Assembly (NCBI GenBank): GCA_030248215.1
Contig: JASANG010001546.1
Span: 496,001-560,000 of the forward strand
Source of the DNA: Enoplolaimus lenunculus
Taxonomy: Eukaryota
Reading direction: 5' to 3'
DNA: 64,000 nt
Notes under the pieces: model-generated
Databases searched by the model: none
Told to the model about the DNA's origin: nothing
What the model saw: the letters and a program-made list of their open reading frames with translations, nothing else
Translations under genes and position numbers: made by a program
Shown: positions 1 to 63,937 of the stretch, one piece after another
How the letters are laid out: the number at the start of each line of letters is the position of its first letter
How positions within the stretch are numbered: position 1 is the stretch's first letter

Positions 1-2548
1 CATCTTTGCACATTACATATACACATATGCAAAACAACTAAATAGTACAAGATTTACATGACAAATGACCTTGTGGTCTTTATGCAACCGTGAACCCCAT
101 TAAACCACACAGAGAGAAACAGTACGCAATGGCGTATATCAACGGGGCTTTATCTCTCAAGCTGACCCATTTGCTATTTTTACTCAACGGATTTAAATAC
201 TTCTTTTTAGTCCTTAAACACAACATCCCCCCTTCGAAATTATTCTACAACGCAACCCCGTTTTTATTTCCATAATCCTGGCCACATCCCTGATACAGAC
301 GGCAAAAATTGCCTAAGCGCCTCTGACTGAGTCTCAATGCGATTGTCAACGCAACAGCAAAACCCCATTGAAGCACATAACCTGTGCCGCGTTGCAAAAG
401 TTCGCTTCAAACTTTTTTTTGTAGTTTCCTGCTTTTACAGATGAAAATGTATCATAGACTGCGCCTAACCTGGCTAATCATTTTTTTAGATTAGTCTCAG
501 TTATAAACATACGTACATAATACATGTTAAATATACGTATATATGTGTAGTGTTGTACTGACAACTTGCAATGATACAACGGTAAACAATCCATATACAA
601 TCCCATGGACGCTGCCAGAATCTCGGGTATTGGGATCCAGCGGGAAAAACATACAACGTATACTTGTCGCTGCAAACTATCCGTTTCTATGCACATAACC
701 GTACCACATTTGTTTAATAATTCAGAGAGGGGGTGGCGGCGCAGGTGCAACCCCTTGACAAGTTTTGCCGTCGAACACATGCATTACCATAAACATCATT
801 CGAACTTCGCAATAATACATGAAATATAAATTTCAAAATATTGTCAACTAAACCAGTTATATATTTCAATTGGAATCTGAATGAAAAAATATTCAAACCT
901 GTTTTTCGTTAAAGTTCAACCAAAATTACAACTTCCATCCCAGCGATACAAATCAAAATCAGCCATTGCAGGCACCTAACAACCCCTTAAATCTGGTACT
1001 TGTTCTAATATCTGTTACACTGGCTCGTAGCGACTTCAAGCCTAACCAAGACTTAACCGCATATCACCACCGCTTTCATCCGCTTTTATATGTCAGCGTT
1101 TACCTTAATGAGTGCCGCATTATTTGAACAACAAACTTGTACTAAACACAACTCGAAAACAATTGATAACGAAACAAAAACCTATTATTAGCCAACAATG
1201 CCTGTCAATAACATATGAAAAAATGCCTAATGTCATTTGAGTAGCATTTGCAAACATTAATTAGATTATCATTGGTTGATATTTACGTATATATATTCAT
1301 TCTAAATAAATAATATAAACTTAATTATTGAAACAATACGGTCTGCATATCCCTTTTTCCAAGTTTTGTCCAAAATGAAAGACCCCAAATCTCGAGCCGG
1401 AACCTCGGCACTCTTGCACTACAGTTAGCCATGCTATCCACATTACATGTTCGATTGCAACAACTTCGTATTCCGGTATATATATATAGACAATGTTTTG
1501 CTTTACATTTCCACCACAATACCCTTCCGTACACTTCACTAATAGAAGAAATCTACGTCAAAAGTATGATAAACTATAATTACGAAACCATAACACTAAT
1601 ATCGTTCCCTACACAGCCTACTAAACACTTAAAAATAAAAAGTATATATACTTGGCAAACCAGGTCCCGACTGACACATATCGACATCTGATTCGTTCGT
1701 TTTGTTTTTCCAAACACCAGTCTCACAAATTTAGGCCAACCAATCAGGACACAATCTCAATTTTTATCTCCAACAAAAAACTAGAAAACCTAAACGCCTA
1801 AAATTAGTTCGTCTAATCTCATGGGACGCTAGCCAGCAAATCGTCATTGTCTCCTCAACAGTCGAAACAGCAACGGTTTTAATTAAACGCCGGCATAGAC
1901 GCTACAAAAACCAACCCCACGAGTCAAATCAATATTTCTCCTGCCCACAGCTCAAATTGTTCATTTCAAACTTCACCCCGTCCTGCCTGTTTTAAGTCAT
2001 GAAAAAAAAAGTATTTTTTCCGTCGTCAAAGTATTTTTTGCACATTCACTCTCCTCAGATGCCATCTGTACCGCGAGTCACGCAAATGGACCAAAACTTT
2101 ACCGACTCTAAACTATAAATAAACAACAAATAGCAACCTTGTTTTTTTTGTTCTTTTTCTAAAAATATATCGTTCACACGAAAACTTAAAGAAGCCATGA
2201 ATTTGCGTTACTTATTATATATCAAAGTTGGAGTCAACCAAAGGTGAATCAGTCATATCAACCAGTGATTAATGTTTTCAAATCCTGACAGTCAAAACGT
2301 TAACAATTGAAGCTTTGCTACAAATTGTGTCCAACTTGCATTTGAGTACTAATTTACTAAGCATTCTATTTTCTGTATATTGAAGAATATTGTTAAATAT
2401 ACGGTTCAACTACAAAATCCACATATGTTCACTGTTTCGTTCGCTTGCATACGAGTTATAAACTCATACGAGGCGCCAGCGGTGTTAAACACCATTCATA
2501 TCCCAAATATTTGTGGTATGTGACTTCAAGCTGGAGGTACGTCTACGC

Positions 2549-9133: not shown

Positions 9134-9364
9134 TGTAAGCATGTGAGACATGAGTGTCCTGGTCCATATGCAATAAAATGCAATGCACATTGTGTTGTAC
9201 GGTCAACACATATAGTCGACGAAAAATGCAGTTGGAGAGGCGGACTACGTGGCGCAGTGGTAGAGTGCTCGCTTAAGGCTCCATAGGCTGAGAGTTCGAT
9301 CCGTGCGCTAGCCCGCTTTTCCAGCTGCTTAGTAAAAAGGTCTAATGTCCTTTAGTTCCCACCT
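9134..9364 (+). mobile_element. Solo, 3'-truncated LTR of tRNA-bearing TRIM family A
   Basis: Begins TGTAAGCATGTGAGACATG like the LTRs at 30446-31362 and aligns to them over ~230 bp. tRNA-like core at 9243-9314 (box A TGGCGCAGTGG, box B GAGTTCGATCC). Confidence 0.8.
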
Positions 9365-15945: not shown

Positions 15946-16027
15946 ATACTGGCTTGGCTGTGTTCGAGAAAACTGTAACTTACACAATAATTATTTGTCT
16001 TCATCTTATTTGCAAATTGTAAATTAA

Positions 16028-16290
16028 CCCCTTCTCACATTGAGTTGCCTATAGGTAACTTGGCGCAGTGTATATACGTTAAATAGTATATATCGCACCG
16101 TGTTTAACAATTGCAACACGTATACATAGAACCAAATCACCACAAGACGTGAGAGCCCCCTCGGGCTCGAGCATCAAGCTCCTATAGCTGAGTGGTGATG
16201 GTATACGCCTCCCACTCCAGTCACCGGAGTTCGAATCCTAGCATAAAAGTAGATCTCAGGGGAAATAGAAAATATTCATGTGAGAAAGGG
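16028..16290 (+). mobile_element. piggyBac-like TTAA MITE carrying a tRNA-like Pol III promoter, copy 1
   Basis: TTAA|CCCCTTCTCACAT...ATGTGAGAAAGGG|TTAA. Internal box A (TAGCTGAGTGG) and box B (GAGTTCGAATCC) at ~16178-16250. Confidence 0.85.
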
Positions 16291-19200
16291 TTAAACAAGT
16301 TAAAAGCATGATGTAAAAACGGATAGTAATAATAACAAACGGATAGTCGTCAAAATAGCCAAAACAGATTTTAGTAGAAATGTTGGCTTTCTGAAATTTT
16401 AAAGGATAAATGGTGGACGCATTGAAAATTAACTTTTGCAGGCGCTTCATTTTTATTTCAAACAATTGCAGCTCTTTTGAAAATGAAAGATCGAACGATT
16501 ATCAACAAAATATTTAAGGAAAATTCGGGTATATATGTCTATGTCAACGCAAATTGACCGGTTTTTGTCAGAGACATTCCGGTTACACCTTGATATAAAA
16601 TATGAAGTTCGTGCAACCGGAATTATAAAATACCGGAACCTTAGCCGAAAAGTAAAATGATATATACCGGAGCAGGAACCACAAAATAAAAATAATTGTT
16701 ACCGAAAGTTTCATTTTAACGTTATTCAATCGCTATTAATGGTGGTGAAAAAATACCAGATTTATTTGCATAACCGAATAAAAAACGGCATTTCCCAACC
16801 GGAATTCCGGTTGCACCTTGCCCTTGGCCCATAGTCTCAAATGTAAAGCAGTTATCATCAGTTAGTTCTTTCCGTTTTTACTATCCGTTGTCACCCCGCT
16901 CTCTGCCTGATGGCTATAAGTTTCATTACGTATTCTATTAAATCCACAACTATGTTCAAACGTATAAAACTTCAAATTTTACTGAAAAGAGAATTTCCCT
17001 GTTTTTGTGGCCTCGGCGTTTCTACATTATTTTAATCTATCAAGAATGCAGCAAATTGAAGTTTGTCTGCTTGAGTCTGTTGTATTTCTGAAAAACGAAT
17101 ATTTTTTTCTTGAAGCTGACAATGAATTCTACATTTAAGTACTTATTTTTCAAATGACAGAAAAAATAATAACTGTGGTGATAAAAATTAGCTACGGTTA
17201 AAATGGTTGAAGACAATAATCTGAGAAATATTTTGAAAAAATTTCTAAACTTTAGTCATTTATGAAGTTTTTTTACTTGCGAAACTTTTCGCTGAAAACC
17301 AAAGTGCAAACGCGGGTACAAAAATGGAGCCGGAGCAACATAAAAATTTTAGCGTAGCCGGAGGTGAAACAAAAATAGGTATATTCCGCAAGTCATTGGC
17401 ATACAAATCTCTGATCTCAAGTGATCATTGCATACAAATTGCAATATGTCATATGACATCAGTGGACATTTATGCGAGTATCATATGATATTCCAAAATT
17501 CTACCAAATATTACATTATACTGCAGGACAGTGTAATTTGTGTGCACTAATGAAATAAGTGTAATTTGTGTTCACTAATCAAATAGTAAAAGCTATCAGG
17601 GTTCATCCGTAGGTCTGTCTCCGGCTCCAGGCAGAAAATCAGTCTCCGGTTCCGGTAGAATTTTTGCCGGAGGTTCCGGCAATTTCGGTAGTCAAATTTT
17701 GCATAATTTGGCACAATTTATCTGTTTAGCGCGTTCAATATATATTTCGGCTATCATAGAATATTGCAGTCAGACTATAAAATTTTAAAGAAAAATTTGC
17801 GGATGCACCTAATTTTTTTAAAGCATTTGGATGAATTTTGTAATTTTTATTCAATTTCAAACAGTTGTAGCATATATAATATGTGTAAAATTCTAAGATA
17901 TACACGTGAAAATTTCCGATAACGTTCCACCCTATGGTGAATCTGATTGTCACATCAGGATAGCAGACAATTCAATTTTTGTATTTTATAGCGGATCAAC
18001 GTGCACACAAAATATTACCGCTATTGCATAGGAACAATTCGTGTTTCAGGTTGCCCCAAAGGGTGAACCCGCATATAACAGGGTGCAACCGTAGGGGAAA
18101 TATACCTGAGCCAGTTTGCATAGGGTGACAGGAAATTGGGTTGACAAATATCTGTAAGGTGCTGCTTTACATCTACTTAAAACGAAACGTGCTAGATTAT
18201 ACAACTATTTTATCGGAACCTCCAGAAAAAATCTATTGCACCTGGACGTCGTTTTCTGTTGAAACCAGACCTCCGGTTTTACTCGAGTAATGTGTGTAAG
18301 CAAAAAATTAGTTTAAAGATCACCGTAGTGCTATCCTGATCTATACATTGGACCAAAAATGACAAAAATGCTTGCGTACCTGCTGGAAAAGGCTAGTTTT
18401 TGATTTGCCAACAAACAACAGCCCAAAAATTAAAACAATAAAACTTTATTAAAAATAAAATAGCGACAAAGATTATTCTGCATAATTTCACTAATGTCCA
18501 TGCGTTTACTTAAATGTTACGTACGTATATTTCTTGCACTATCGTAAATGAAAATAACTCTGTCGTAACTGCTGAAATTTCTTGCAAAATATCCATACCC
18601 GGAACAGTTTGTTATCTCCTGTTACAGGAACGAGACTTCATTTTGCACTCTGAGACACATCGAGTACCAAATACCATCGGACGGCTGTCAACGCCTAAAA
18701 CTTACTGACCCTTATTTTCTTCAGGTTTCTGCTTTGAAATATTCGTATAGCAATAAAAGTCGAAACAACATCGCACAACTGTTCGATTAAATAAATCAGC
18801 TGTACTAATTAATTAAAGCATGTCAAATAATGGATAAATTTCGTGAAACTATCATATTAAAAACTTTTCATGCCACGTACCTACCACAGCTTTGTTAGGT
18901 AACTTTTCGTGCAACTGTTTAGCCACTAACCGCGCCACCAAATATAATAACACTTTTATCTGTGTAGTAAAGTTTACGATATAAAGGTATAAAAAACTGA
19001 TTACAGCATACGTATAAGTAAGTCTTGATTAGCTTGGCTTAACCTAATGCTAATTCGTCCAAATCCGTTGTGTTTCACAACTAGAAAGGCATTTCAAAAC
19101 GAAAATGTACGCAATTGTAAACATGGAGAGAATGTCTTTATATTTTTAAACATCCCGTTTCACTCAAACACTGCACCGTAATAATAATATACTGCGGAAT

Positions 19201-20369
19201 AAAAATCTCTGCTCTATAAATCGAATTAAGTTCGAAAAACCAAACGAAAACCTGACAAAAAAAGAAAACTAAAAAATCATTCAAAGAAATCTAAGAATGT
19301 AGAAAAATTCAGTTTACATGAATTGAATACACTTAACGCGGTATGAAGAATGTTGTACTTGCACCGGGCATATTTGTTACACACACGTAAAATACACATC
19401 ATTCGATACAAAGAATACAACATTACTAAATTAATATTCAAACGAGTAAGATTTAACGATTTGTATGTAATATTGCAAACTTAAATGCAAAATATTTAGG
19501 ATTTTATAAGACGCAACCGGATTTCAAAAAATACCGAAGCCAAATCCGCATATTCACGCGAACATTTTAACAAAAAGTAACAGCTTAACTACGCTAATTT
19601 TACCGTTACTTGCGATATAATTTATGTTTGTACCAAACTTTTAACCTCAACCGGATTTCTGTATATTGTTTAGTTGCGAAACATCGTCATTTTTTGGTCA
19701 TAAATAATGGTTCAAATAATAAGTTATGTCATAGCTTTAAGCGATAAATGTCCGACAATGTAGAATACCGTAGGCGAATGTCTATTTTCTTTGCCGCAAC
19801 CGAACATTCGAGTTTTGGCAATTGGCTATACAGCTTGACATAAATGACAAATTTTGTACAGTAACCACACAACAACCGTTGCGTACAAGCTTGCACTCAA
19901 TAACAACGATGACGACAGTGGCTTGCAGTCAACCTTAAAATTGCTAAAAACAGCATCGCGTATTGGTGTTGCATTTGAAAAAAATGTTCACAAAGCTCGA
20001 CGATAGCAGATATAAATAATTGAATGAAAAAAACATGACCGCACCTAAAACATAAATATACTACGTATATGTTTTCATGATTTAAGTAAAGATATACAAC
20101 GATGCCAGTTCGAGCATGTGTATTCTGCAAACAACTCATAACAGGTGCATACAGTTTATGATGCCAAAACTTTGTTAAACCCGATTAATTTAGGCTTGTA
20201 ATTTTTCAACGGTCCGCTCAACTCAATGCTGCGTCCGGCTTGAATGTTTGCGATCACGGATTGAAACCGTAAAATCGCAATCGTTCGCTAATGAAGAAAT
20301 ACCGTAGTCGAGAGCGTTAGTCGAAATGCGGCTCTGTATAGATTGCAAGCCGTCCGGTCCAACATTTAA

Positions 20370-20631
20370 CCCTTTCTCACATGAATATTTTCTATTTCCC
20401 CTGAGACCTACTCTTATGCTAGGATTCGAACTCCAGTGACTGGAGTGGGAGGCGTACACCGTCACCACTCAGCTATAGGAGCTTGACGCTCGAGCCCGAG
20501 GGGGCTCTCACGTTTTGTGATGATTTAGCACTATGTATCGTGTTGCAATTGTTAAACACGGTGCGATATATACTATTTAACGTATATACACTGCGCCGAG
20601 TTGCCTACAAGTAACTCAATGTGAGAAGGGG
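20370..20631 (-). mobile_element. piggyBac-like TTAA MITE with tRNA-like core, copy 2
   Basis: Near-identical inverted copy of 16028-16290, with TTAA at 20366-20369 and 20632-20635. Confidence 0.85.
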
Positions 20632-21832
20632 TTAAGGTCCCATCCGCGGTCCATAGTGAGAGGGACTGTGGACCGTTCAGTTTTTTGTGGTCCGCCCCAT
20701 ACCACTGCATACATATTAGTCATACCAGCATATGCTGCTTTGAGTTACATATACCAAACTACTTAAAGTAGTATACAGACATTTCGTAGTCAATCATGAA
20801 CAAAATGGTCTTGTTCAAGCAGTGCCCATGGTTCATACTAAGCTAAAATTTTTCGACTGGATGGGTCCAATAAAAAGCCTCAAATTATGCCATGCGGCAA
20901 ACTATTATCTACTGTAGCCGAAATCTTCAAATTTATACAATACTTATAATTATTTTGGCCTAATAATCAAAAATTAAGATCGCTTCCTAAAAAATTCAAC
21001 CGCTAGAAGTTTGTCACAATTTTGAGTATAGTGAATATGATATTTAACATACTAAAATTATAAAACTTGCAATCCAGAAACTACATACGTAAATTATGTT
21101 ATAACTTACGTACTGAGCAATGCATCACAATATTTCCGAATACGCCTCCCCTCTTAAGCAACATTATTACGAAATGTTGGCGTCAACCAGAACAGCGTTG
21201 CTATCGTAGAAATAATCAGGAGACAATACAATTGTATTTATTCGAATTGACAACACGGAAAATTGATTTTTAAGGAGCACAAAGCAAGAAACGGCAGCGA
21301 AGAAACTAATTCTGAATAAAAAACGTTTACAGTTTCCATTTAGAAACTCTTACTGCACTGCTATTGCCAATCTATATATTAAAGCTGGAACGCCCCACAT
21401 ACGTATATTGGGCAAAGCGTTACTTTTGGTTTACAATAAATTTCTTAAGAAATACACGTGATTGTTCGATGAAAAGAAAATTTGCAAAGAAATTTTTGTG
21501 CTTTCGCTAAGTTTTGCGCATTGCGCAAAGCTGGCCGACTAGTAAATACGTACTATAATTCAAGTTAAATGTCATCATATTATTACATGGTTAAACACAT
21601 TAATTAATATACAGGTATTCAAGCAAATTAAGACACTTCGGAAGCAATACATGAAGTAAACAATACTTTGAATACAAACGACAAGGCTTTGATAAGCAGA
21701 AACAATCACATAGGCACCAAAACAGGGTGTGTATAGTTGGAGAAAAAGATGCGGTGTTCATTATTCGGTCAAGGGGGGAGTTGGGGCGAGGCCCAATATT
21801 AGAAACAAATGTCGATCCAATTGGTGCTGACT

Positions 21833-27800: not shown

Positions 27801-30800
27801 TCGATTCATGAAAACTTGCCTGGTTGTGTTGTTTAGTAGGTATATTTAGCACAATACCTTGAATATTAAACGCCAAGGAATATGTACGTACATACGAACG
27901 TAAATAAGCTAAACGTCACATGTTCTGCGTATGTATAAAATGCTTATACAAAAAATAAGCATGAAAATAAATAAAACCCACACATCATAAGCATATGTTT
28001 GGTTCAATAGCTAGCATTCATGATGTTAAGCGTAACTGGATTAAAACGGAATCGGAACAGCAAATTGGTATTGTAATCGGAACTACAAACTTTGTTACTA
28101 TAAGGATAATTTGTGCCCACAATAATATAGCTATAATATTGATTTAGGTGTATGTTGCAGGGTGGCAACAAAGGTTCGGATTCGTATTCGGATTCGGCAA
28201 AAACTTGTAGTTCGGATTCGGATTCGGTTGTAAAAAAACCGAATCCGAAATCCTAATCCAACAGTGTTGTTCGGCAATATGTTATTACAGTTATAATCAA
28301 CAAAAAATTTGATATCTTGTTATATTAGTAAAAAAATTTTGTTTCAGGTCACAAATCTCAAAACTGAGGTCGGTCACGAAATTGAAACGTTTAAAAGTTA
28401 TGTGGCTGGCAATGCGTTGATATTCTGAAACAAATTATAGATATAACTGAAACTGGCAACGTGCAAGATTGGTGCCACCCTGGTCTGTCTGCTTGTAAAA
28501 ATCTTCAAAAACGTCAAATGAACAAACTGGTGATAATTTTTAGTTCTGTTAAGCTGAACTACAATTACTTGTTAATATTTTAAAACTAAACTGTAGTTTT
28601 GTGTGTTTAGATGTTGAAATGGACAGAAATTTTATGTATTATATCAGAACAAGAAGGATTAAACTGATTCCGATTCAGTGTGCAAAATTCGTCTATGTAT
28701 ATAGCGCTAATTCTGTATATAAATAAAAGCAGTGGAAGTGGCACTAATTCTTTCTGAGGTCTGGATTCGATTTAACATGGTATCAAGAGCGAGACGTCGT
28801 ACAAAAGCAAGCCAGTAGTATTTACACAAGATGAGCAACTAAGACTACCTTTCTCATCCCTGTAACCTGCTTAAATTTTCCGTGAATTAAATTACAAAAT
28901 TTACCTTAAACTTCATTTTACTGACCTGTTGACTAGAAGACGAATGATCACTGCTCGAACTTGTACGATGATTATATTTACTGCTGCTCGTGTCGTTGTT
29001 TTGCATAGTGACATGGGAATGCAATGATAATGGCTGATCTGCCAAATTGTTCAAATTTGACCGCTGCTGTAATGTTCCAATGTCCGGCTTTGCTGAGCAT
29101 GCTTTATCGGGCAACGGGGGCCGGGGACGATGTTTTTGATGTTGTTCGGATGGCAACACGGGTTTGTGCACGCTGGACTGAGCTTTTAAAGGACTGCCTG
29201 AGCCTGGCGAATTCGGGTACAACCCTGATGGTTTAATCGATTGATGTGGAGGTGCCGGTGCGTGATGTGATTTAGTTGGTGGGATACGCGGTGATGAACC
29301 CTGTTGTGGTTGTTGTTTATGACGGCTTTGACTAGGTACTGTTATAGTAGGCGGTGACGCAAATCCGCTGCCACTTCCAGGATTCATGGCTGTCAGTGAA
29401 CCAGATCGATCTTTTTTCTCGAACAATTTGAGCGAGTCCATCACGCTGGCACCTACGCCACCGGACCCAGCTACACAAATGTTATCAGACGAACCACCAG
29501 CATTATTACTGCGATCGTTTGTTGTAGATCCTCCTCCAATCGCAAACGCTGCGTTTCCGCCACGTAAACCTGAACCTACCCCGTATTTTGAGGGACCATT
29601 TGGCACACTGGACGATGAGTAATCGATATTTTGATGATCAGCATTGCTACCGATGTTAACAAGCGACGATGCCGAATTCGATGACTGTAGTAAGCGATCA
29701 GGCTTTTGAGCAAGCGGTGGTTTCGGTCCTAATCCAGCCAACTGAGCGTTAATACCTGTTACAGTTTCTCGTGCACCAGAGCCAATTGCGGCAGTATGAT
29801 TTGAGCGTCCAATCGTTGTCGCGTTACTGCCAGATACTGATGTTCCGTACCGATTTGTAGTAAACGATGGCTCAGATACTTTCCGCATATGATCAGGCGG
29901 TGACGGTGAATGTTTTGGACTTGACACGCCCTCTGAAGAAAAAAGTATGTGTATGTATATTAAAACTGAAAACAAATGGCCTTATTTCAGATTCAGGTGT
30001 TGCAAAGCGTAACCAGGCTTTTGGAGTGCTCTTTGCTCTAAAGCATACAATTGTGATAAGTTGGGTAGGCTAGGGTACGACAGTTTTTAGTTCTGAGTTC
30101 TCAACAGTTGACAATGAGGGACGCTCCCAGGAGGTTTCGAACTCGGTTGACAGATTATCAGTCCAGCGCGCTATCCACTGAGCCACGTCGCCTCACATTC
30201 GACTGCTGAGTTTTTCTGTTTTTATGTCTTATAAGAACCTCAACATTATACACATAACACACGTATCTTGGTTCTTCAATGTTTTACCGCTTCTGCATAT
30301 GAAGGCACTACATATGCATCAACGTTTTACCGATGTGCAGCATTAGCATTAGGTTTCATTTTGCCTCCATACATCCGCATGTCACAACAATCAGCGATTT
30401 GGGGCTTTTGTTGTGAAAGAAAGGACGTAAGAGTAATATGTACGTTGTCAGCCTACACTGGAACCAAGGCCATCTGACCTTTCTACCAAGCAGCTGGAAA
30501 AGCGGGCTAGAGCGGTGATCGAACTCTCAGCCTATGGATCCTTAAGCGAGCACTCTACCACTGCGCCACGTAGCCCGTCTCTCCAACTGCATTTTTCGTC
30601 GACTATATGTGTTGACTGTACAACACAATGTGCATTGCATTTATTGCATATGCACCAGGACAAACATGTCTCACATGCTTACATGCCCTTATTTTCAACA
30701 AGGTCGTTCCTTGACCGTCCATCCTATTTTCGACTGGATACCGTGTTCATAGCGCGACAATTTACCATTGCGTCCTCGGAGTAGCCCCATGTCAGCCTAG

Positions 30801-32099
30801 GTAGGAACCAAGGACATCAGACCTTTCTACCAAGCAGTTGGAAAAGTGGGCTAGAGCGGGGATCGAACTCGCAGCCTATGGATCCTTAAGCGAGCACTCT
30901 ACCACTGCGCCACGTAGTCCGCCTCTCCAACTGCATTTTTCGTCGACTATATGTGTTGACCGTACAACACAATGTGCATTGCATTATATTGCATATGCAC
31001 CAGGACAAGTATGTCTCACATACTTACATGCCCTTATTTTCAACAAGGTCGTCCCTTGACCGTCCATCCTATTTTCGACTGGATCCGTGTTCATAGCGCG
31101 GCAGTTTACCATTGCGCTCACGGCGTAGCCCCCATGTCAGTCTAGGTAGGAACCGGGACATCAGATCTTTCAACTAAAGCAGCTGGAAAAGCGGGGATCG
31201 AACTCTCAGCCTATGGATCCTTAAGCGAGCACTCTACCACTGCTCCACGTAGCCTGCCTCTACAACTGCATTTTTCGTCGACTATATGTGTTGACCGTAC
31301 AACACAATGTGCATTGCATTTATTGCATGTGCACTAGGACAAGCATGTCTCACATGCTTACAAGGAAAGTCGCAGCTTTTATATAAGTACCTGTTCGTTT
31401 CTTGATTGCCGCACTCAGCTGCGACTGTAAGTCGTTTGAGCAAGGAGTTGCAACGCTACAGCTGGTATTACGTGGAGTTAAAGCGGAAGGCGATGCATTT
31501 GACGAGTTTCCTGCACGTCCAGCGTTTCCTATAACAGCGTACAGCACAGATGTTTAATTAAGTATTTATATAAATGGCAACTTTTCGAGCTGTTGTCAGA
31601 TATTCATTGCTGAAAGGCTCGACATAACTTTTTTCGCAGTGACTTTTGTTCAGAATAGAAGTAAGAATAGTAAGAAACACAGCTGATATTAAAACACCTT
31701 TTCAGCAACTGCCAGAGCCTGATGATGAAGTGTCCATCTTCGGATTTAGTATTTTTATATCCGGTCGCAACCTGTTGTTTGCAATTGAAAACAACAAAAT
31801 AGTTAAACTTAATTCCCTGATGCATTTTTAAGTTCCTAACGGTTTGTGTGATCAGAAATATACTAATATCCAGACAAAAAACACAAAATCACACCTTTAG
31901 AATCAATGAAAGGTCCGCTGCGATCATTTGTTATCGTTTTCTTCAGTTTTGTACCTTTATGAATGTCAGATAATAACGCAGCTCTGTTTGTGCCACCGCC
32001 TGATATTCCTGACTTTGCTTTTCCAGCAAGTGAAGGCGGCGGTGGTGGTGGACCAGGAGCGCCCGGAGGGGGTATCGGAGCAGGTGGTGGTGGTGGCAT
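21833..32099 (-). CDS. WIPF: WASP-interacting protein (WIP/verprolin family)
   Basis: In-phase exons 32099-31895, 31528-31391, 29932-28926, 24362-23945, 22722-22612, 21978-21833. N-terminal polyproline and WH2 domain (RAALLSDIHKGTKLKKTITNDRSGP), Pro-rich middle, and C-terminal WASP-binding motif FASRFRFVDIWDLPPPEPF. Confidence 0.9.
26857..27125. mobile_element. MITE with long imperfect TIRs in TA context
   Basis: ATATGTCGCAGGCCAAT ... ATTGGCCTACGACATAT. A related partial copy lies at ~25995-26245. Confidence 0.6.
28158..28482. mobile_element. hAT-like MITE (CAGGGTGGCA ends) nested in an older MITE
   Basis: CAGGGTGGCAAC...GGTGCCACCCTG. Same family as 44585-44957, in the opposite orientation. 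Confidence 0.65.
30052..30386 (-). mobile_element. Solo LTR of tRNA-bearing TRIM family B, copy 1
   Basis: TGTGA...TCACA inverted termini with a perfect 5-bp TSD ACAAT (30047-30051, 30387-30391). Minus-strand tRNA-like core at 30192-~30119 (box A TGGCTCAGTGG, loop CTGATAA, box B GAGTTCGAAAC). Confidence 0.85.
30446..31362 (-). mobile_element. Tandem-array TRIM family A: LTR-I-LTR-I-LTR with a tRNA-like sequence in each LTR
   Basis: LTRs at 31362-31135, 31028-30790 and 30683-30446 (sense TGTAAG...CTGACA). The 106-bp internals start with PBS-like TGGGG(G)CTAC and end with purine-rich GAAAATAAGGGCA. No TSD is visible. Confidence 0.85.
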
Positions 32100-32919
32100 G
32101 CTAATGTAGCACGTTGACTATTGCAAGTACAACCAAGATTTCAAGTTTCTGTTAAATTCAGGGAATGCGGTGACTGCTTAAAATTAAGTAGCTAAGAATC
32201 CAGATTACTAGTAAATGTTGCAAATGAGCACGATAGAGCTGCTACTGTAAAACATAATACAATTAAGCCAAACAAAACATGTACTAGGTTAATTAAAGCT
32301 GCCTAGACATTAACACAAACCGGTATGCTGATCCATACCACATTTCTGTTGGATCTACTCTTATGTAAGTTTGTATATCAAAAACACAGACCGCACCATG
32401 GCCTAGAAAACGGACAGAGCATATAGAAAATTAGTTGTGCTGAGCTTCGGGAAGAAGCACCTAAAAGAACTATGAAATCTCGAGATATTGGTAACAAAAT
32501 TTGCATTGTAAAGTTTGATTTTAACCCTAAAAAAGTTTACACTCGGCAGCCGGTGGGGGCATGAATACCCCCATTTCCTCAGGATCCGCGCTTGTTAAGA
32601 TACGTCTCTGCAACCCAACCTTTGTGTCAAATGAATTGTATGTTTAAAATTTTAGGCATTTAGGAATGGAAATTATCAGGTGAGTTGACCTAAAAATACT
32701 TGAACCTTGCCAGTTATAGTTTTCCTTTTTGCGTTCCGCAATTGCAAAATTTTATCAGTATGAAATGTTATCATTAACTGGTGATGAGTGCTATACACAT
32801 TTGAAAACATATGCCTGGATCTCAAATAAAAAAATTTTGAAAAATGTAGCAAGCGTCATTTTTAGTCAGTGGATCCAAATTTACAAATTATAAATACATA
32901 GTATATATTTATGTGATAT

Positions 32920-33550
32920 TGGATATTCTCCCGTATGGTCTCCTTATTTGCTGAGAGACATTGATCAGGTCGAGAAAATTCAACGGTTTTTTACTAGACG
33001 CCTAGTCGGTAAATTCAAGTTGCCAGCAATGAATTATCTGGCCAGACTACAGCACTTTGGTCTTCAGTCCTTAGAACAACGTAGATTGATACAGGACATG
33101 GTATTGTTTTATAAAATATATCACGGTGATTGTGGTTTAGATCGTAATGATTTTGTTGTATCTACAACTGAGAACCGTACGAGAGGTCATGATTCCCGAG
33201 TTGTCATCAATCATTGTCACACGGATTCTCTTAAAAATAGCTTTTTCCATCGTGTTAAACCTATTTGGAATGATTTGCCGCAACATGTTAATTCAGTTCC
33301 TCTTATCCATGCTATGAAAGATAAATCATTTTGCAATACATTAAAACGGGTAGATTTCTCTAGGTATTTAAATGCGATCGTAACCTTGATTAAGATAGGT
33401 GAAAATTACGGTTTACCCCCTTTTCATCTGATTATTGTTTGTTACGGAATTGAGTTTCCTTTATTTCATACCTTTATAATGCTTTAAATTTTTCCCTGTT
33501 CAAATAATCATTTCCGCAATAAACTTTTAGTTTGTTTGTTTGTTTGTTTG
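32920..33550 (+). mobile_element. 5'-truncated CR1/L2-group LINE 3' end
   Basis: ORF2 C-terminus SPVWSPYLLRDIDQVEKIQRFFTR..YLARL..LQSLEQRRL..DM..FYKI..RTRGH..FF.RV..WNDLP, followed by AATAAA and a (TTTG)n tail at ~33530-33550. Confidence 0.85.
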
Positions 33551-33754
33551 AATTGAGCTGTATGCTATATAATTACATAACTATTATGACTACTCTTCAA
33601 GTTAACTATTTACTTGACACAAAAATGGTTAGGATATAAATATATGCAGAAGATCGTAACGGAGACTTCCAACAGATTTGTATTTAGTGTCAGTCTATCT
33701 GAGTAACGGGACTTCCGAACTTTTTACTTCAGCAGCTGGGAAATCGGTTACAGG

Positions 33755-34067
33755 TGTGATAAGTTGGGTAGGTTAGGATACGACGGTTTTTAGTTCTGAG
33801 TTCTCAGCAGCTGAAAATGAGGGACGCTCCCAGGAGGTTTCGAATTCGGTCGACAAATTATCAGTCCAACGCACTATCCACTGAGCCACGCCGCCTCACA
33901 ATCAACAGCTGAGTTTTTATGCCTTACGAGAACCTCAACACATGCATATGGTTCTTCAATGTTTTTATCGCTTCTGCATATGAAGGCATTACATATGCAT
34001 TAACGTTTTACCGATGTGCCTCATTAGCATGAGGTTTCATTTTGCCTCCATGCATCTTCATGTGACA
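33755..34067 (-). mobile_element. Solo LTR of tRNA-bearing TRIM family B, copy 2
   Basis: Aligns end to end with 30052-30386. TG...CA ends, flanks ACAGG/ACAGT (4/5 TSD match), tRNA-like core at 33895-~33822. Confidence 0.8.
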
Positions 34068-34180
34068 ACAGTTGGTTTCCGTAGACTAGACTCATGGTGC
34101 CTGTCGGTATATGTGCACGTAAGTGTATGTAAAGCAAATGTTGCCATGCCTGTGCACATATACCGGTATAATGTTGCAAC

Positions 34181-34252
34181 GACCGCGTAGTGTAGTGGTA
34201 TCATGCTTGGCTCGAGAGCAAGAGGGCCGAGGTTCGATTCCCGGCGTGGTCA
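34181..34252 (+). pseudogene. 72-nt tRNA-like sequence in LTR1 (anticodon position CGA, short variable loop)
   Basis: GACCGCG TA GTGT AGTGGTA TCAT G CTTGG CTCGAGA GCAAG AGGGC CGAGG TTCGATT CCCGG CGTGGTC A. The acceptor stem pairs fully; the T and anticodon stems have mismatches. Confidence 0.75.
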
Positions 34253-34485
34253 TTAACTTTGGCAAAACTTCAAACAGGGGTCGTGCAGACCGTATAGTAC
34301 CAACATGGAGGTCCCACCGAGACGGGCACTGCAAACAGCAAGCCCATGAAATCGGGTAGTTGGATTCACGGTCCGGGACGACCGCCTGTAAAAAAGAGGG
34401 ATGTCGGTATATGTGCACGTAAGTGTATGTAAAGCAAATGTTGCCATGCCTGTGCACATATACCGGTATAAGAAGTTGTTGCAAC

Positions 34486-34557
34486 GACCGCGTGGTGTAG
34501 TGGTTGCATGCTTGGCTCGAGCGCAAGAGGGCCGAGGTTCGATTCCCGGCGTGGTCA
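34486..34557 (+). pseudogene. 72-nt tRNA-like sequence in LTR2
   Basis: Second copy of 34181-34252 with a fully paired D stem (GTGT/GCAT). Confidence 0.75.
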
Positions 34558-35700
34558 TTAACTCTGGGCAGAACTTCAAACAGGGGTCGTCTAGACCGTA
34601 TAGTACCAACAGTGCCAAATTAATATACGCTATAAGCAAAACTTATTTTTTTATTATGACAATGGCTCACGTTTGGCGTTTGTCTGTTTTTTCCAAATTT
34701 AAGTATTTACTCAAGTCGGTGACTGAAGTAAATTAAGTATACCTTAAGTGAACAATTAAGAAAGATTGCAGAAACCCAGCCAAGTAGCTGTAAAATCGGG
34801 TTACAGGTGGTCGTCATCTCTATAGTCACCTGTTACTGATTGGTTTTCAATCAAGCGAACAGTAGCAGCGTCAAATGTCGAAACCTGCATTGAAACGAAG
34901 CAGATCAAGTACGTAATGACCGCCGTTACAATGCGATGGTGTTGGTTAACTTACCAATTTTGTTAATCATATGACATTAGGTTTATCCTATCCACAACGT
35001 CTGTCAAGTTGCATTTGCAGTTATCTTTTGAAAGCTGATGCGTAAACTTTTTCAACCCAATATTTCTTTCTGTAAGTCATTTTACCGCTCAAGACACGTA
35101 CACGTTAACAAAAACAAACTTACGAAACATCGCTTTTAAAGAAATATATTCCTCACTATGTCATGTTTTTTCGGTACGTAATAAATACGTCAGTGAGAGT
35201 GATGTTATCATAAATTGAAGTAATTTTGAAAACAGCAACCTTGGTGCAAAATTTAGCCAAGATTGGGCGTTTAAGGCAAATTTTGCCGGTTTAAACACGA
35301 AACGAATGTTGTATTATTTAGCTGAAAATCTTGTTTTGCCGTATAAACAATTTAATGATTGCTACATGCAAATGGAATGAAGGCAAAGGAGACAATATTT
35401 TCCACCTTGAAGATAATGAAATGTTTCGATTCCCGCATATTTTATAATTCTGTGTTGATATCTGGCTTTTCATAATGCGTACATTTTTCATGGAATTGTT
35501 CTGTGTACAAAGTTCACATAGCCTCTGAGTTATTTATATATACGTACCTTTTCAGCACTGCCACATATTTATTCTGCCTTATTTTTTACATTAATTAAAT
35601 CTATTAATTAAATAGGTTCTGAATTGCAATTATATTTGGATTTATTGCTTGCGATCATATATAGTAACTGCTGCAATTTTTGCTAAGCAAATTTTCGGAG

Positions 35701-36416: not shown

Positions 36417-36806
36417 CAGGGTGCAACCGGAATTCCGGTTCCGGCATTTTTTCACCTTCCGGTTCCGGTAAATTTTTACCGGATTTAAAAATTCCGGTAT
36501 TATAATTTGGCCGTTTTCTTAACTTTGCTAATTTAATAAGAATCTCTTTTGAAAGCCACTTGTACTCCGAATATAAGCCATTGATGGTGGATTTCACTTC
36601 AGTCGATGATGAAAATCTAAAATACAACAAATAAAATAAATATATACCTATATTCGACTAAGGTTATTTCACAAATAATAGAGCAAGAAATAAGATTAAA
36701 ATGAAATTTTTGATGATATGCATTTTTCACTTTCCGGTTCCGGTTCCGGTAAAATTTTCAAATTCCGGTTCCGGTTCCGGTAAATTGTAATTCCGGTTGC
36801 ACCCTG
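36417..36806. mobile_element. hAT-like MITE, 8-bp TSD TTGATGAC
   Basis: CAGGGTGCAACCGGAATT...AATTCCGGTTGCACCCTG with a perfect TSD at 36409-36416 and 36807-36814. Confidence 0.9.
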
Positions 36807-38927
36807 TTGATGACCAAAAATTGACCGAGACCGAGACGTTATGACCGGTGTCGGTCTCAGTGTCGCTTTTGAACTGAGAATACACACGCCTGGCCAGTAG
36901 TCTAGGATTCAGGAAATGTGTTGCTTTGGTTTCAATCAGAATTCCTGCAAGAATTCAATTCCTGTTCTGTTCCTGCATTTAACGACACAGGAACCAATAT
37001 TTTTTACTGTTTTGTAGCAAACTACTCATAATCATTTATATACTGGAAATTTTTTCTTTGAAAATTTGTTATTTCGAAATGATTATGTTTCCATTAGTTC
37101 AGTTTTGTTAAACGATTTCTGCTGCGTTTTCGCAAAGTTGGATGATGAAATCGCTGAAAATTCGCTTAAGCAATTTTTTTATGTTTCATAGTTATGCAAT
37201 AATTATCAGCAGATGTTCTGAAAAACGCAAAAATAACTATGAAAAACTCACGAAAAAAGCTTAAAAATAATTTATTTTGAAAAGCTTTTTTTCTGTGATG
37301 ACCAAAAATGGAGCAAGACCGCAAAAAAGTCGACGAGCTAATTTTATTTTAAATTATAGTCAATTAACAGTAAGTACGTAGATGGTGCAATATATTTGCA
37401 ATTCCTGTTCCTGTTCCGGTATATTCCTGTTTTTGCTTCCTGTCAAATGTGGTTCGAGTTAAAAGCCGGACGTATATATAATATATTTGAGTTCGAAATT
37501 TTTGAAAAATGGAAAATGGCTTACATAAATTTTGCTCTGATGTTGCTATTTTCACGCTAGTGCTCTATACAATGTTGCAAGTAGCACTTATAAGCTATAT
37601 ACGTACATGTACGTTTGTATATAATACGTGTTAAATCGGCTTATGTGTTCTGCTGGCTAAGATAGCAGCCAGGACTGCCATTTTACAAAGGTCGTTGGTA
37701 ATTATTAATATGAATTATGATTGATTTTGATTTTCAGGCCCATATGTTAAGTTGCAGTGTTATCATTAATTTTACGTACTACGTATATTAAGGTACTTGT
37801 AGCGAACTACCGATTTGGATCTCTTGTTTTGTTATATATTTGTTTAATTGGTTTGCATTATTCTTTTGTTATTAAGATAGGCTGTAGCATAGCGTCTTTT
37901 ATTAACGGATGCATCCATGTTATACTACGTATTCATTTCAGCCTGTGCCACGTTGCAAAGCGGAAATGGATTATATCGGAATCGGAACGGCAAATTTATA
38001 TCGGAATTGTTAGCAGAACTACAATTTGTGTGGCTATACGGATAATTTGTAATAACAAATATAATATTGATTTATGGTGCGCGTTGACTAACAGAAATTT
38101 CAAAAACGTCGCATAAACAAATTCGAGATGATTTTTGGTGCTATAAAATACATCGCAATGAATCTTACAGAAAAAAGATGCAGAAGTTTTATGCAACATA
38201 TCAAAGGAAGTAGGATTAAAAATTAAATTTCGAAATTCCAATTTCGATTGACTGAGTAATAGAAATCGAAACTCGTGTTGAATCGGAATTCTAATCGCAA
38301 TCAAAATTTCGGTTGCACCACGTTTTCAGCGATAAATATCTGGTAACTGATCCAGTACATGGAATCCGATCGCACTCAGTAATTCTAATGTTGACCGTGG
38401 TGATGTGAATTTGGAATCTTGAACATTAATTCAACTTGTATTGTCTTCAATCGGCTGTACATAAACGTTATTGTAACACTTCGATAATTAATATATACGC
38501 AAATGTTTCGTTTGTATATGGTTTATATTAAGTAAATTGCATAGGTTGTCATTTGCCCAAATCCAATGAATATGTAGGTGCACTCGTACCCTTACGATGA
38601 ATGTAGTTCTGTTTACATTGTTTTTTGAGTAGTTTTTTATTATTATCACCTTGGTTGTTGTTGCTACAAATAATCCACACAGGTTCTCGAGTCTTGCATT
38701 GTGTATAATTTTATGTATTGTGCCGGTTTTGTTTGTTGTATGTTGAAACCGAATCCATTATTCGAGTTTGGAGCATCTTTTATTGGTCGTTACGTACCTG
38801 GAGCGGCTTCTTGACTAATGTTTGAAGATTGTGTTATATGGAATGTTTTGTTTTGTTTTTTATTTTATTTTATTACGGTTTTTGTTGTTGTTTTTTGTGA
38901 TGGTGTTTAGTTTTAGTGTGTGTACTG

Positions 38928-39369
38928 CAGGGTGCAACCGGAAGTCTGATTTTGATTAGAATTCCGATTCAAAACGAGTTCCTATTCCGATTAGAATATC
39001 GAGTCAAAGCGAATTCCGATTCCGATCGCACAATCAGCTCGAATTGGAATTTTGAAATTTTAATTTTAATCTTACTTTTTTGTGGTACGTTGCATAAAAA
39101 TTCTGTATTGTTTATCTCGTTCCATGAGTTGATTTATCAATAATATATTTTAGTTTAGCTTTGCAGGACCAAAAATCGCCAATCTGTTCATGCGACGTTG
39201 TTAGACAATTGTTGCCACCCAACAGATACTCTAAATCAGCGTCATATTTTTCAATGCAAATTATACGTATAGGCACAAAATTTCCTAGTTCCGATTTCGA
39301 TTACAATTCCGGTATAAATTTGCTGTTCCGATTCCGATTTGCTACAATCCAGTTCCGCTTTGCACTCTG
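38928..39369. mobile_element. hAT-like MITE (CAGGGTGCAA family)
   Basis: CAGGGTGCAAC...TTTGCACTCTG with flanks GTGTACTG/GTGTACGT. Related partial copies at ~5340-5618, ~37945-38320 and ~39590-39925. Confidence 0.75.
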
Positions 39370-40406
39370 GTGTACGTACTGTGTGCTTAATATGGAATCC
39401 TAGGTGTTGAAACAAGATTGATTTTCTAGGGCGGGCGTAGCCAACATTTTGCAAACGGGGGTGTCGTCTTGTAAAAATTTTGAAAAGTTTCTTGTACTGC
39501 CACCTGAAAAATTCCTAAGACTGATGGGATGGGCGTAGTGTCGTGCGCAGTTCGATCCATCAGTTTCAGACTAAAAGAATTTTGTCGGAATGCGGATTGA
39601 TTAAACGTAACTTTTGAAACAATCAGGAATTGAAACTACAAATTTTACGACTATACGGATAATTTAGATAAACAAGTTAATATTGATTATGGGTGTCTGT
39701 TGGCTGGCAACAATTCTCAAAAACATCGCATTTGGCTCTGTAAAACTAAACTACAATCAATTATTGATAGTTAAGTCATCGAAAACAATTTAATACATAA
39801 ATCATATAGATTTCTTAAACAACATAACAACAAGTTGGCCTAAAATTAAAATATTGAAATTCCGATTGATTGTGCAATCGAAATCGGGATTTAATTTGGA
39901 ATCGGAATTCCGATTGCATTCTGGTGCACGGTCTTTATTTTGCTTACCTGGCAGTGTAAGTTGGCTTAACTTAGTATTGATAGTTATTTTGTTTGCTTTC
40001 GCTCAGGAAGGTAAATATATCACACTGATTATTTGGAAGAATTAGGTCGCTTTTGAATAGAGTGTATATATTTGATAATTCGAAATAAAAATAAACTAAA
40101 TATATGATATATAATCTATATTATGTAAGTATATATAGCGCTTATATATCGTGAAAATGTTTGTGTGTTGCTAAATTGTATTCATGATTGTTGACAGAAA
40201 GTGTAGTTTCACCGAATGCCTGAGCTTTGAACTGAAACGTAATTGATCTTTCCGCCTGTGTTATGACAACTTAAAAGAGGTGACAATGAAGTAGTGTGAG
40301 AGGCAACAACACTGTTTGACGTTGAAATGAACCGTTATTTATTATTTATTTAGTATATTTCGTAAGTTGAATATCTGAGTGTATACGGAACTCCAGTTCC
40401 GGTTAG

Positions 40407-40877
40407 CAGGGTGCAAAGCGGAACTGATTTATACCGCAATCGCAATCGGAACAGCAAATTTGTATCGGAATTGGAACAGCAATTTATATGGGAATCGGAA
40501 CAGCAAATTTATACCGGAATCGGAATCGGAACAGCAAATTTGTTCCGGAATCGGAACTACAAATTTTGTAACCATACGGCTAATTTGTTTTAACAAGTAT
40601 AATATTGATTCAGAGTGTCTGTTCGCTGGCAATAATTCTCAAAAACGTCACATGAACAAATTGTCAATCGTTTCTTGGCCCTGTAAAGCTAAACTACAAT
40701 CAATTATTGATAAGCTAACTTATCGAAAACAATTTAATAGATAAATGATGCAGAATTTTTATACAACATATCATAATAACAAGTAAGCCTAAAATTAAAA
40801 TGTGGAAATTCCGATTCCGGTTGATTGTGCAATCGGAATCGGAATTTGTTTTGAATCGGAATTCCAATTGCACCCTA
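40407..40877. mobile_element. hAT-like MITE, 8-bp TSD CCGGTTAG
   Basis: CAGGGTGCAA...TTGCACCCTA with a perfect TSD at 40399-40406 and 40878-40885, and internal GGAATC repeats. Confidence 0.85.
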
Positions 40878-42387: not shown

Positions 42388-42567
42388 GGGCCCATGTACA
42401 GAACAGGGTCGCAACGTTTTCCGCCCGGACTGTAATAGTGTAAGCTTAAGCTTTAGACTATTTTCTGCTTAGGCTTAGGTATAACTTCATTCTTACGCTT
42501 AGGCTTTAGGCTTAGGCTTAGTAATACGCTTATACTTCTGTACCGGCTGTGTTCGATACATTGGCCC
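42388..42567. mobile_element. GGGCC-ended MITE with 6-bp TSD and TTAGGC arrays, copy 1
   Basis: GGGCCCATGTA...TACATTGGCCC with TSD ATTTGA at 42382-42387 and 42568-42573. Confidence 0.75.
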
Positions 42568-44584: not shown

Positions 44585-44957
44585 CAGGGTGGCATCGAAT
44601 CCACGATTTGACCGAATCCGAATCCAAATCCAGTGCTAATTTGCCGAATCCGAATCCTGCATGTTGCAAATTTCAGATATATCTATAATTTGTTTCAGAA
44701 TATCAACGCAATGCCAGCCGTATAACTTTTAATACGTTAATATATTTCGTCCCGATGTCAGTTCTGTGATTTCTCACCTGAAATAAAAAATATTGATTTT
44801 TTATAGCAAGGTATTTAAAAATTTTATTGCTTAAAAATTAAAAACATTGCCGAACTTTGTTAGATTCGGCTTTTGGATTCGGCTTTTCCACAACCGGATC
44901 CGAATCCGAGCCTCAAATTTTTGTCCAATCCGAATCCGAACCCTTGTTGCCACCCTG
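44585..44957. mobile_element. hAT-like MITE, 8-bp TSD TATCAGAG, inserted in the terminus of another MITE (to ~45392)
   Basis: CAGGGTGGCA...TGCCACCCTG with a perfect TSD at 44577-44584 and 44958-44965. Confidence 0.85.
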
Positions 44958-45945
44958 TATCAGAGTGCAACCGGAATTCGGCTTCCGGCATTTTTTGACT
45001 TCGGTTCCGGTTGCGGTGAATTTTTACTGGAAAAGAAAGTTGCGGTATTAAATTTTGGTCGGTGGAAATTAAAAGATATATATTTTACTAAAAAATGACG
45101 ATAAAAATTAATAAGATTTCATTTGTATACGTAGTATATAAACTTTGGCCATCGCCGAAAATAAACCGTCGAAGGTAGATTTCGCTTCCGTGGCTTGTCA
45201 AAATTTAGAATACAGCAGATAAAGTGAATATCTATCTCCAACTAAGGGTTATTTCACCAATAATATTGCAAAAAAAAAGAAAATTGAAATAAATTTTTTG
45301 GTGGCATGTACGCATTTTCAATTTTCCAGTTCCGTTTCCGGTAATTTTTTCAAATTCCGGTTCCGACAAATTGTAATTCTGATTGCGCCCTGAATTATAT
45401 ATATTATACGTTACGTACTATTGTACGTTAAAATATATATTATGTGTACGTATTAAATAATTAATTAAAAAGCAGTTTGCACGAATTGATTGCAATGGAT
45501 GGATGAATGGATTAGCTACAGTATTTTATAAAGTTGTTTGGTGTTTTTAAGGATTTGTCAGTGTTGAAAGTTTTTGGTTTTTATATGTTTTTAGTGTAAG
45601 TACGTAGCTTATTATTTTAAATTGCAATGAGTTGAAAAATAGCGTTTCGCAGTTATTAATTGAACACAGCGTAGTTGAAACCAGAGTTGAATGTCGACGT
45701 TAATGAACCGGACGGATTTCAGTTGAGAAAAATTCGTTTAAAAGCTACTTATATACGTATTTGATTGTGTTTAGCCGTTTTTTTCAATCTGACCGCAAGC
45801 CGTGATTTGTGTTTGTAATAGACAGGGTATAGCCGAAAATGCCATGGTGAATATATGAGAAATTTTCGAGCTTTTATTGAACCAAACACGCAGGGATTTG
45901 GATAATGATTTTAAATTAACTACGATTTTTGTACATGAAACACGT

Positions 45946-46077: not shown

Positions 46078-46281
46078 GTGCGCATGTAAAGATCAGGGGC
46101 GGAGCGTTTTTCTGTGAGACTAGAAAAGAGTAAGCTTAAGCTGTAGACTAATTTTTTTGCTTGGCTTAGGCTTAGGAATATGCTCATTCTTACGCTTAGG
46201 CTTAGGCTTAGGCTTACGCTTAGACGTAGGCTTAAGAATATGCTTATAATACTGGTCCGCCCCTGTTCTTTACATTGGCCC
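46078..46281. mobile_element. GGGCC-ended MITE with 6-bp TSD and TTAGGC arrays, copy 2
   Basis: ATGTAAAGATCAGGGGCGGA / TCCGCCCCTGTTCTTTACATTGGCCC inverted ends, with TSD GAGTAT at 46072-46077 and 46282-46287. Confidence 0.75.
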
Positions 46282-60451: not shown

Positions 60452-60714
60452 CACTTTCTCACATGAATATTTTCTATTTCCCCTGAGACCTACTTTTATG
60501 CTAGGATTGCAACTCCAGTGACTGGAGTGGGAGGCGTACACCGTCACCACTCAGCTATAGGAGCTTGACGCTCGAGCCCGAGGGTGCTCTCACGTCTTGT
60601 GGTGATTTAGTACTATGTATACGTGTTGCAATTGTTAAACACGGCGAGATATATACTATTTAACGTATATACACTGCGCTGAGTTGCCTACAGGCAACTC
60701 AACGTGAGAAGGGG
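60452..60714 (-). mobile_element. piggyBac-like TTAA MITE with tRNA-like core, copy 3
   Basis: Near-identical to 20370-20631. Flanks are TTAA/TTAT. Confidence 0.8.
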
Positions 60715-63032: not shown

Positions 63033-63937
63033 ACGCAATAAAAGACCATTTAAATTGAACCACTACGTATCAAAGTTAACGACGATTCTGACGATTCTCA
63101 CACGCAATAAAAGACCATTTAAATTGAACCACTACGTATCAAAGTTAACGACGATTCTGACGATTCTCACACGCAATAAAAGACCATTTAAATTGAACCA
63201 CTACGTATCAAAGTTAACGACGATTCTGACGATTCTCACACGCAATAAAAGACCATTTAAATTGAACCACTACGTATCAAAGTTAACGACGATTCTGACG
63301 ATTCTCACACGCAATAAAAGACCATTTAAATTGAACCACTACGTATCAAAGTTAACGACGATTCTGACGACGCATAATCTCACACGCAATAAAAGACCAT
63401 TTAAATCATGAACCACTACGTATCAAAGTTAACGACGATTCTGACGATTCTCACACGCAATAAAAGACCATTTAAATTGAACCACTACGTATCAAAGTTA
63501 ACGACGATTCTGACGATTCTCACACGCAATAAAAGACCATTTAAATTGAACCACTACGTATCAAAGTTAACGACGATTCTGACGATTCTCACACGCAATA
63601 AAAGACCATTTAAATTGAACCACTACGTATCAAAGTTAACGACGATTCTGACGATTCTCACACGCAATAAAAGACCATTTAAATTGAACCACTACGTATC
63701 AAAGTTAACGACGATTCTGACGATTCTCACAAGCAATAAAAGACCATTTAAATTGAACCACTACGTATCAAAGTTAACGACGATTCTGACGATTCTCACA
63801 CGCAATAAAAGACCATTTAAATTGAACCACTACGTATCAAAGTTAACGACGATTCTGACGATTCTCACACGCAATAAAAGACCATTTAAATTGAACCACT
63901 ACGTATCAAAGTTAACGACGATTCTGACGATTCTCAC
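63033..63937. repeat. 69-bp tandem repeat x13, almost identical units
   Basis: Unit ACGCAATAAAAGACCATTTAAATTGAACCACTACGTATCAAAGTTAACGACGATTCTGACGATTCTCAC. There are small indels near 63370-63410 and a substitution near 63732. Confidence 0.97.

Follow-up and report, generated by a model that had tools for sequence, protein, structure and literature searches.

Three families of miniature long terminal repeat (LTR) retroelements, here called A, B and C, lie between positions 30052 and 34611 of a 64,000-nucleotide stretch (the window) of the nematode Enoplolaimus lenunculus (assembly GCA_030248215.1, contig JASANG010001546.1, positions 496,001 to 560,000, forward strand). Each LTR holds a tRNA-like core with the A and B boxes of an RNA polymerase III (Pol III)-type promoter, flanked by the LTR portions U3 and U5, and the elements can be classed as TRIMs (miniature retrotransposons with terminal repeats). 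They lie in or beside a WIP-like gene, recognized by an exon with a WH2 domain (Pfam, E 2e-11). The first-pass annotation of this DNA had placed all three families in introns of that gene; this holds for A1 and the B array, which occupy the intron between the WH2 exon and the following large exon, whereas A2 and C are 1.6–2.5 kb upstream of the WH2 exon ATG, possibly inside an intron of the 5′ untranslated region (UTR).

The copies and their parts, including a primer-binding site (PBS), a polypurine tract (PPT) and target-site duplications (TSDs), are the following.

30052..30386, minus strand: A1, family A solo LTR, 335 bp; core 30118-30192; TSD ACAAT/ACAAT (5/5)
33755..34067, minus strand: A2, family A solo LTR, 313 bp; core 33821-33895; T4 at +79; TSD 4/5
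30446..31362, minus strand: family B tandem array, three LTRs and two internals; no TSD (0/5)
31135..31362, minus strand: B LTR1, 228 bp; core 31193-31254 (62 nt, the 3′ 10 nt deleted); T4 at +65
31029..31134, minus strand: B internal 1, 106 nt; Pro-type PBS 31117-31134; PPT adjoining LTR2
30790..31028, minus strand: B LTR2, 239 bp; core 30848-30919 with inverted arms on either side; T4 at +75
30684..30789, minus strand: B internal 2, 106 nt; PPT; PBS lacking one G
30446..30683, minus strand: B LTR3, 238 bp; core 30504-30575; T4 at +75
9134..9364, plus strand: fourth B LTR (B4), 3′ end lost; core 9243-9314; T4 at +75
33688..33747, minus strand: diverged B-like U5 end beside the A2 insertion site, 75% identity (nhmmer E 2e-4)
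34102..34611, plus strand: complete family C TRIM, 510 bp; perfect 5-bp TSD GTGCC/GTGCC
34102..34305, plus strand: C 5′ LTR, 204 bp; U3 hairpin at ~34105-34165 (z -3.9), core 34181-34252, U5
34306..34323, plus strand: C PBS
34268..34399, plus strand: predicted 30-pair helix around the PBS, U5 34268-34304 with internal 34359-34399
34390..34401, plus strand: C PPT, abutting the 3′ LTR
34402..34611, plus strand: C 3′ LTR, 210 bp; core 34486-34557; 96% identity with the 5′ LTR in aligned columns
1328..1534, minus strand: old, decayed C-like LTR, ~68-71% identity (nhmmer E 1e-20)

The termini are those of LTR elements. All seven complete LTRs of the interval start with TGT and end with ACA, with 5-7 of the 8 terminal bases complementary, which bears out the TG..CA repeats with short inverted ends described in the first-pass annotation. 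Its 5-bp TSDs, within the 4-6 bp expected of TRIMs, are likewise present where duplications are visible: boundary sequences fit at 5 bp only (A1 5/5, C 5/5, A2 4/5; a perfect 5-mer is expected by chance at 0.0013), with no duplication at 4, 6 or 7 bp, and none was found at the two damaged copies (9134..9364 and 1328..1534). In all three internals, TGG immediately follows the LTR and a purine-rich tract (11, 11 and 13 purines in the last 15 nt) runs up against the next LTR, so that each carries both the PBS and the PPT expected of a TRIM, in 106, 106 and 96 nt; an internal of ~100 bp had been proposed. TRIM size, below ~1 kb, is found in C (510 bp) and in the B unit (~580 bp), and no open reading frame (ORF) with a retroelement role occurs in the elements. 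Family A is known in the window from solo LTRs, and its complete structure would have to be extrapolated; the design proposed as common to all three families is therefore seen in full in B and C and in A for the LTR.

The cores are 72-75 nt long apart from the deleted B1, lie in sense orientation 79-194 nt in from the 5′ end of the repeat, and carry an A box and a B box separated by 42-43 nt; U5 measures 54-69 nt. Core and U5 thus agree with the ~72 nt and ~55-65 bp given before. A strict A/B-box scan of the window gave eight pairs against 0.38 in shuffles, six of them in the three families and two in a separate miniature inverted-repeat transposable element (MITE). Resemblance to tRNA beyond the boxes varies. 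The C cores, with a near-complete cloverleaf, are called tRNA-Ser(CGA) by ARAGORN and score 50.7 and 45.3 bits against the Rfam tRNA model, and they alone pass it: B2 reaches 22.2 bits, below the gathering score of 29, A is not reported, and the B core folds poorly (z +0.8). Serine tRNAs possess a long variable arm. The Rfam tRNA scan shows no such arm in the C core, and we reject a functional tRNA-Ser as its identity.

Within families, A1 and A2 are 84% identical (blastn), and the LTRs of the B array are 92-93% identical among themselves and 91-92% to the fourth LTR, a divergence that suggests an old array or one assembled from different copies. Among families, the U3 regions give no significant blastn alignment. 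The internals of B and C can be aligned even after removal of PBS and PPT (P 0.0005 and 0.0095, 2000 shuffles), although their primer sites differ: the C site has 17/18 identity with a published tRNA-Gln PBS (PMC1592299, available in part), and that of B internal 1 matches, by eye, a mollusc tRNA-Pro at 13/18 with the first 8 nt contiguous (Fig. S2 of PMC10886601). Judged from sequence, B and C therefore likely share an ancestor and have undergone a primer switch. Similarity behind the core is significant for A2/B3 (P 0.001), marginal for A1/C1 (P 0.05) and not significant for A1/B2 (P 0.11) or B3/C1 (P 0.91). A common origin of A, B and C thus gains support from sequence comparison, though not from the A1/B2 pair. 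The U5 of A has the short motif GTCGT in common with C.

Fragments resembling B U5, with an upstream part that is not tRNA-like, occur at 33688-33754, 34068-34101 and 34778-34815; A2 and C are each inserted in or next to one, and the fragment near 34800 borders a short palindrome. They may represent an older relative and a hotspot of nested insertion.

Predicted RNA helices could bring the ends of a transcript together. The final 22 nt of U3 and the initial 26 nt of U5 are complementary in families A and B, so that the arms flank the core. For arms of one family the duplex has z from -4.1 to -6.2 (A) and from -2.4 to -6.4 (B). Pairing across families is mostly weaker, and among random positions of the window 0 to 0.4% form an equally good duplex. 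Arms taken from opposite LTRs also pair (B1-B2 z -4.9, B2-B3 z -4.4), and in a transcript running from core to core they would, as modelled, set both cores side by side. In C, a helix of 30 pairs (-37.8 and -40.1 kcal/mol, mean pair probability 0.91) joins U5 to the internal's 3′ half and leaves the PBS within the enclosed region; none of 500 shuffles each did as well, and ~1% of 562 GC-matched positions were as good. A universal U3 hairpin, claimed for every family, was rejected: the hairpin is strong in C (z -3.9) alone, and B (-2.0) and A (-1.0 and -1.6, U3 folded over the first 137-138 nt only) do not have a strong one.

We consider it probable (about 0.68) that Pol III begins transcription at the 5′ core, that the core serves as the terminal redundancy (R), that a host tRNA primes reverse transcription and that a helper with a 5-bp integrase supplies the rest. 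An RNA initiated in the 5′ LTR core would extend across U5, PBS, internal, PPT and U3 and enter the second core; such a transcript begins and ends with core sequence, and the core would therefore act as R. In B, polymerase would have to read through the T4 at +75 and stop at the equivalent T4 of the next LTR (+410 to +419), and in C it could continue to the first T-run, 35 nt past the element end. Pairing of the head of U5 with the tail of U3 (A, B), or of U5 with the internal's 3′ half (C), is predicted to close the RNA and place the cores next to each other for the first strand transfer. The primer would be host tRNA-Gln for C and, likely, tRNA-Pro for B. Solo LTRs and the array would result from recombination between LTRs. 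Gag, reverse transcriptase (RT) and integrase would come from an autonomous helper whose integrase staggers its cuts by 5 bp, candidates being Mag-type Gypsy or BEL/Pao elements. BEL/Pao elements give 5-bp TSDs. The same length is given for Mag elements in 20 of 21 rows of a published table, of which part was available, and Mag is present in Caenorhabditis elegans (PMC3286476).

Several observations weigh against this scheme. A T4 stands behind the core in 4/4 B LTRs (+75, +75, +75, +65) and 1/2 A LTRs, not merely in A and one B copy as first reported, so that most B transcripts should end early. The avoidance of T4 runs that had been offered as a sign of Pol III is not borne out: runs number 0, 1, 1 and 0 against 0.85, 0.91, 0.83 and 0.49 expected from composition (P 0.40-0.80), a depletion that is not significant. 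We therefore reject it as evidence for Pol III; the strand bias arises from surplus A-runs and is significant in A only (A1 P 0.013, A2 P 0.024). The TSD length is based on three insertions, family B lacks a TSD and family A lacks an internal in the window. The ORFs and Pfam matches of the window revealed no coding helper, although one had been postulated. As for the helices, pairing of the core-flanking arms is weak in C (z -1.1, P 0.16), and B shows no significant U5-internal helix (P 0.06-0.67), so no helix is common to all families. Moreover, the arm windows were picked after inspection of the sequence and the six copies contain no clear two-sided compensatory changes; a function for the helices is accordingly a prediction of the folding models.

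A point in favour is that A and B boxes at tRNA spacing have been kept in three otherwise diverged families, two of which (A and B) have lost the cloverleaf. This same retention, in LTRs whose U3s can no longer be aligned, is what tells against the most serious alternative, in which these are ordinary TRIMs transcribed by Pol II and the head of a tRNA or SINE (short interspersed element), captured once in an ancestral LTR, persists as a passenger or an RNA structure and not as a promoter. TRIM anatomy would be identical under either view, the T4 data described above suit Pol II, and a single capture could account for all cores since the families appear related; the promoters of the comparable Helenus elements are, according to Kojima, not validated (PMC10886601). 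We nevertheless regard Pol II transcription as unlikely.

Less probable is an extended form of the Pol III scheme, a nematode-specific Pol III TRIM radiation on a 5-bp-TSD helper so far not connected with Helenus (BEL/Pao or Mag). Here the B LTR would act as a complete mini-gene that has its own promoter and a leaky terminator: short RNAs would become the element's own CCA-tailed primer, read-through RNAs its genome, and the core-flanking arms would clamp the ends. Doubtful too, and rated below it, is self-priming in B as such, whereby a short core RNA ended at the T4, trimmed and given CCA, would prime RT at the element's own PBS. In its favour, the core plus CCA of B2, B3 and B4 is complementary to the PBS of B internal 1 over 9 contiguous nt from the 3′ end (11-12/18), that PBS includes a 7-mer also present in the 5′ acceptor strand of cores B1 and B3, and a terminator-like T4 lies 3 nt past the core. 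Yet the mollusc tRNA-Pro does equally well (by eye, on the available figure), B internal 2 offers just 5 contiguous nt and the C core only 3 nt against its own PBS, the B core is poorly folded and scores a mere 22 bits, and Kojima saw no such match in Helenus (PMC10886601). A literature search for a self-encoded primer in the C. elegans element Cer7 brought up nothing relevant.

That these are tRNA-derived SINEs, tRNA pseudogenes or a local satellite with chance LTR-like ends is very improbable, in spite of the ARAGORN calls in C and the tandem, TSD-less arrangement of B, for the cores lie mid-repeat between TGT..ACA ends, PBS and PPT sit exactly at the LTR junctions, the TSDs are fixed at 5 bp, neither a poly(A) nor a simple-repeat tail is present, the C core lacks the long variable arm, and for C the complete LTR-PBS-PPT-LTR structure with its TSD refutes such a reading.

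The elements agree in structure with Helenus (TRIMp3), described by Kojima in 2024 as TRIMs with tRNA-derived sequence in the LTR, a group defined by structure and supposed to have several origins (PMC10886601). The first-pass annotation had mentioned tRNA-bearing TRIMs under this name, with 4-bp TSDs in animals, and the paper confirms both. Shared are a short non-coding TRIM with an A/B-box tRNA-like core per LTR, a PBS and a PPT, the occurrence of solo LTRs and of tandem arrays, the presence of more than one family in a genome and a core that is no credible functional tRNA; in Helenus, too, the boxes are kept while the fold decays (PMC10886601). Sizes (LTR 204-335, internal 96-106, full element 510) are within the Helenus range, and T-runs shortly past the core are visible by eye in several of the Helenus consensus sequences available. 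B and C fall under the Helenus definition, as does A so far as solo LTRs allow. Unlike the listed Helenus, which include no nematodes in Tables 1 and S1, these elements come from a nematode, and their TSD is 5 bp (3/3 visible cases) against 4 bp in all animal families with a determined TSD, 5-bp TSDs of Helenus being confined to fungi and Selaginella (PMC10886601). The Gln primer of family C is absent from the animal Helenus primers in the available part of that paper. Six diagnostic motifs had no exact match in the text of the Helenus supplement, where line breaks may hide matches.

The main text of PMC10886601 describes no pairing of LTR arms. In the fish Helenus consensus sequences from its supplement, 13-14 nt of the 43-nt internal are, by eye, the reverse complement of a U3 stretch. 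This suggests that LTR-internal pairing, on which that main text is silent, is wider among TRIMp3.

Other systems share single features. The published account of plant Cassandra, so far as available, describes a Pol III-type promoter in the LTR, three-LTR arrays, array read-through and predicted stems between LTRs that leave the internal as a loop (PMC7215508); Cassandra differs in its 5S core and its plant host, and its transcription is demonstrated, whereas that of the present elements is inferred. Ajax, a nemertean TRIM with a 5S promoter fragment, is an animal TRIMp3 with a 5-bp TSD but is 5S-derived and has a Leu primer (PMC10886601). In Ty1, the CYC5/CYC3 cyclization elements pair over a long range, joining the region beside the PBS to the RNA 3′ end; Ty1 is an autonomous Copia element and its pairing is experimentally shown, that proposed here being predicted (PMC3592414). 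No hammerhead or other known ribozyme family, as in retrozymes, appeared in Rfam scans that admitted E values to 1 for the window and to 10 for the region. Two pattern scans of metagenomes for such elements gave 0 loci, and a viral scan gave 11, which are treated as chance (0/11 with a direct repeat, tRNA or element similarity). No report of a nematode TRIMp3 was found in the literature as far as accessible, including two later papers that cite Helenus, with subscription journals, Repbase and Dfam outside the search. The elements thus belong to a kind described in 2024 and, as far as searched, are new for the phylum; the earlier suggestion that they are undescribed in this lineage holds to the extent that it can be checked, the kind itself being already named.

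Further features of the window lie outside these families. A 270-bp MITE-like repeat with 93-94% identity (16024-16295, 20365-20635 and 60448-60717), having terminal inverted repeats that start with CCC within piggyBac-like TTAA ends, holds tRNA-like A and B boxes 43 nt apart and appears to represent another mobile family whose promoter is of Pol III type. A 197-residue frame that lies between the B array and A2 (32894-33487, plus strand) has no Pfam match; we take it to resemble the C-terminal end of the reverse transcriptase protein of a long interspersed element (LINE). Diverged, partly palindromic repeat families of 250-400 bp, probably MITEs, occur at 5266-5618, 37954-40872 and 48131-48481 and at 28158-28470, 36417-36806 and 44653-45392, and a tandem array of period ~69 bp (97-100% identity) at 63033-63937. 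TTAGGC-type motifs number 8 against 0.03 expected and lie inside dispersed repeats, with short arrays at 42469-42516, 46166-46212, 59125-59135 and 60214-60253; TTAGGC is given as the canonical nematode telomeric repeat in the available part of PMC10760449. Ras-like and EGF-repeat membrane-protein genes are found at ~10-12 kb and 6-7.5 kb, and downstream lies one further gene.

50450-56941, plus strand: septin-7/UNC-59-like gene, ten GT-AG exons without stops, 428 residues, long low-complexity N-terminus

In a tree of 21 proteins hit by a HMMER search and chosen for names or top scores, this septin groups with Trichinella, Trichuris, Meloidogyne and Rhabditophanes (support 99/97), without resolution inside the group, and so places the host among nematodes.

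The finding adds to the hosts of Pol III-type TRIMs a phylum that the published list lacks. It breaks the 4-bp rule of animal Helenus, which points to another helper lineage and a likely independent origin, and related families with Gln and Pro primers would be a case of primer switching. Standard tools label family C as tRNA-Ser, by which tRNA counts will be inflated. The predicted end-joining helices, for their part, are a possible answer to what a 100-nt internal requires for mobilization in trans.

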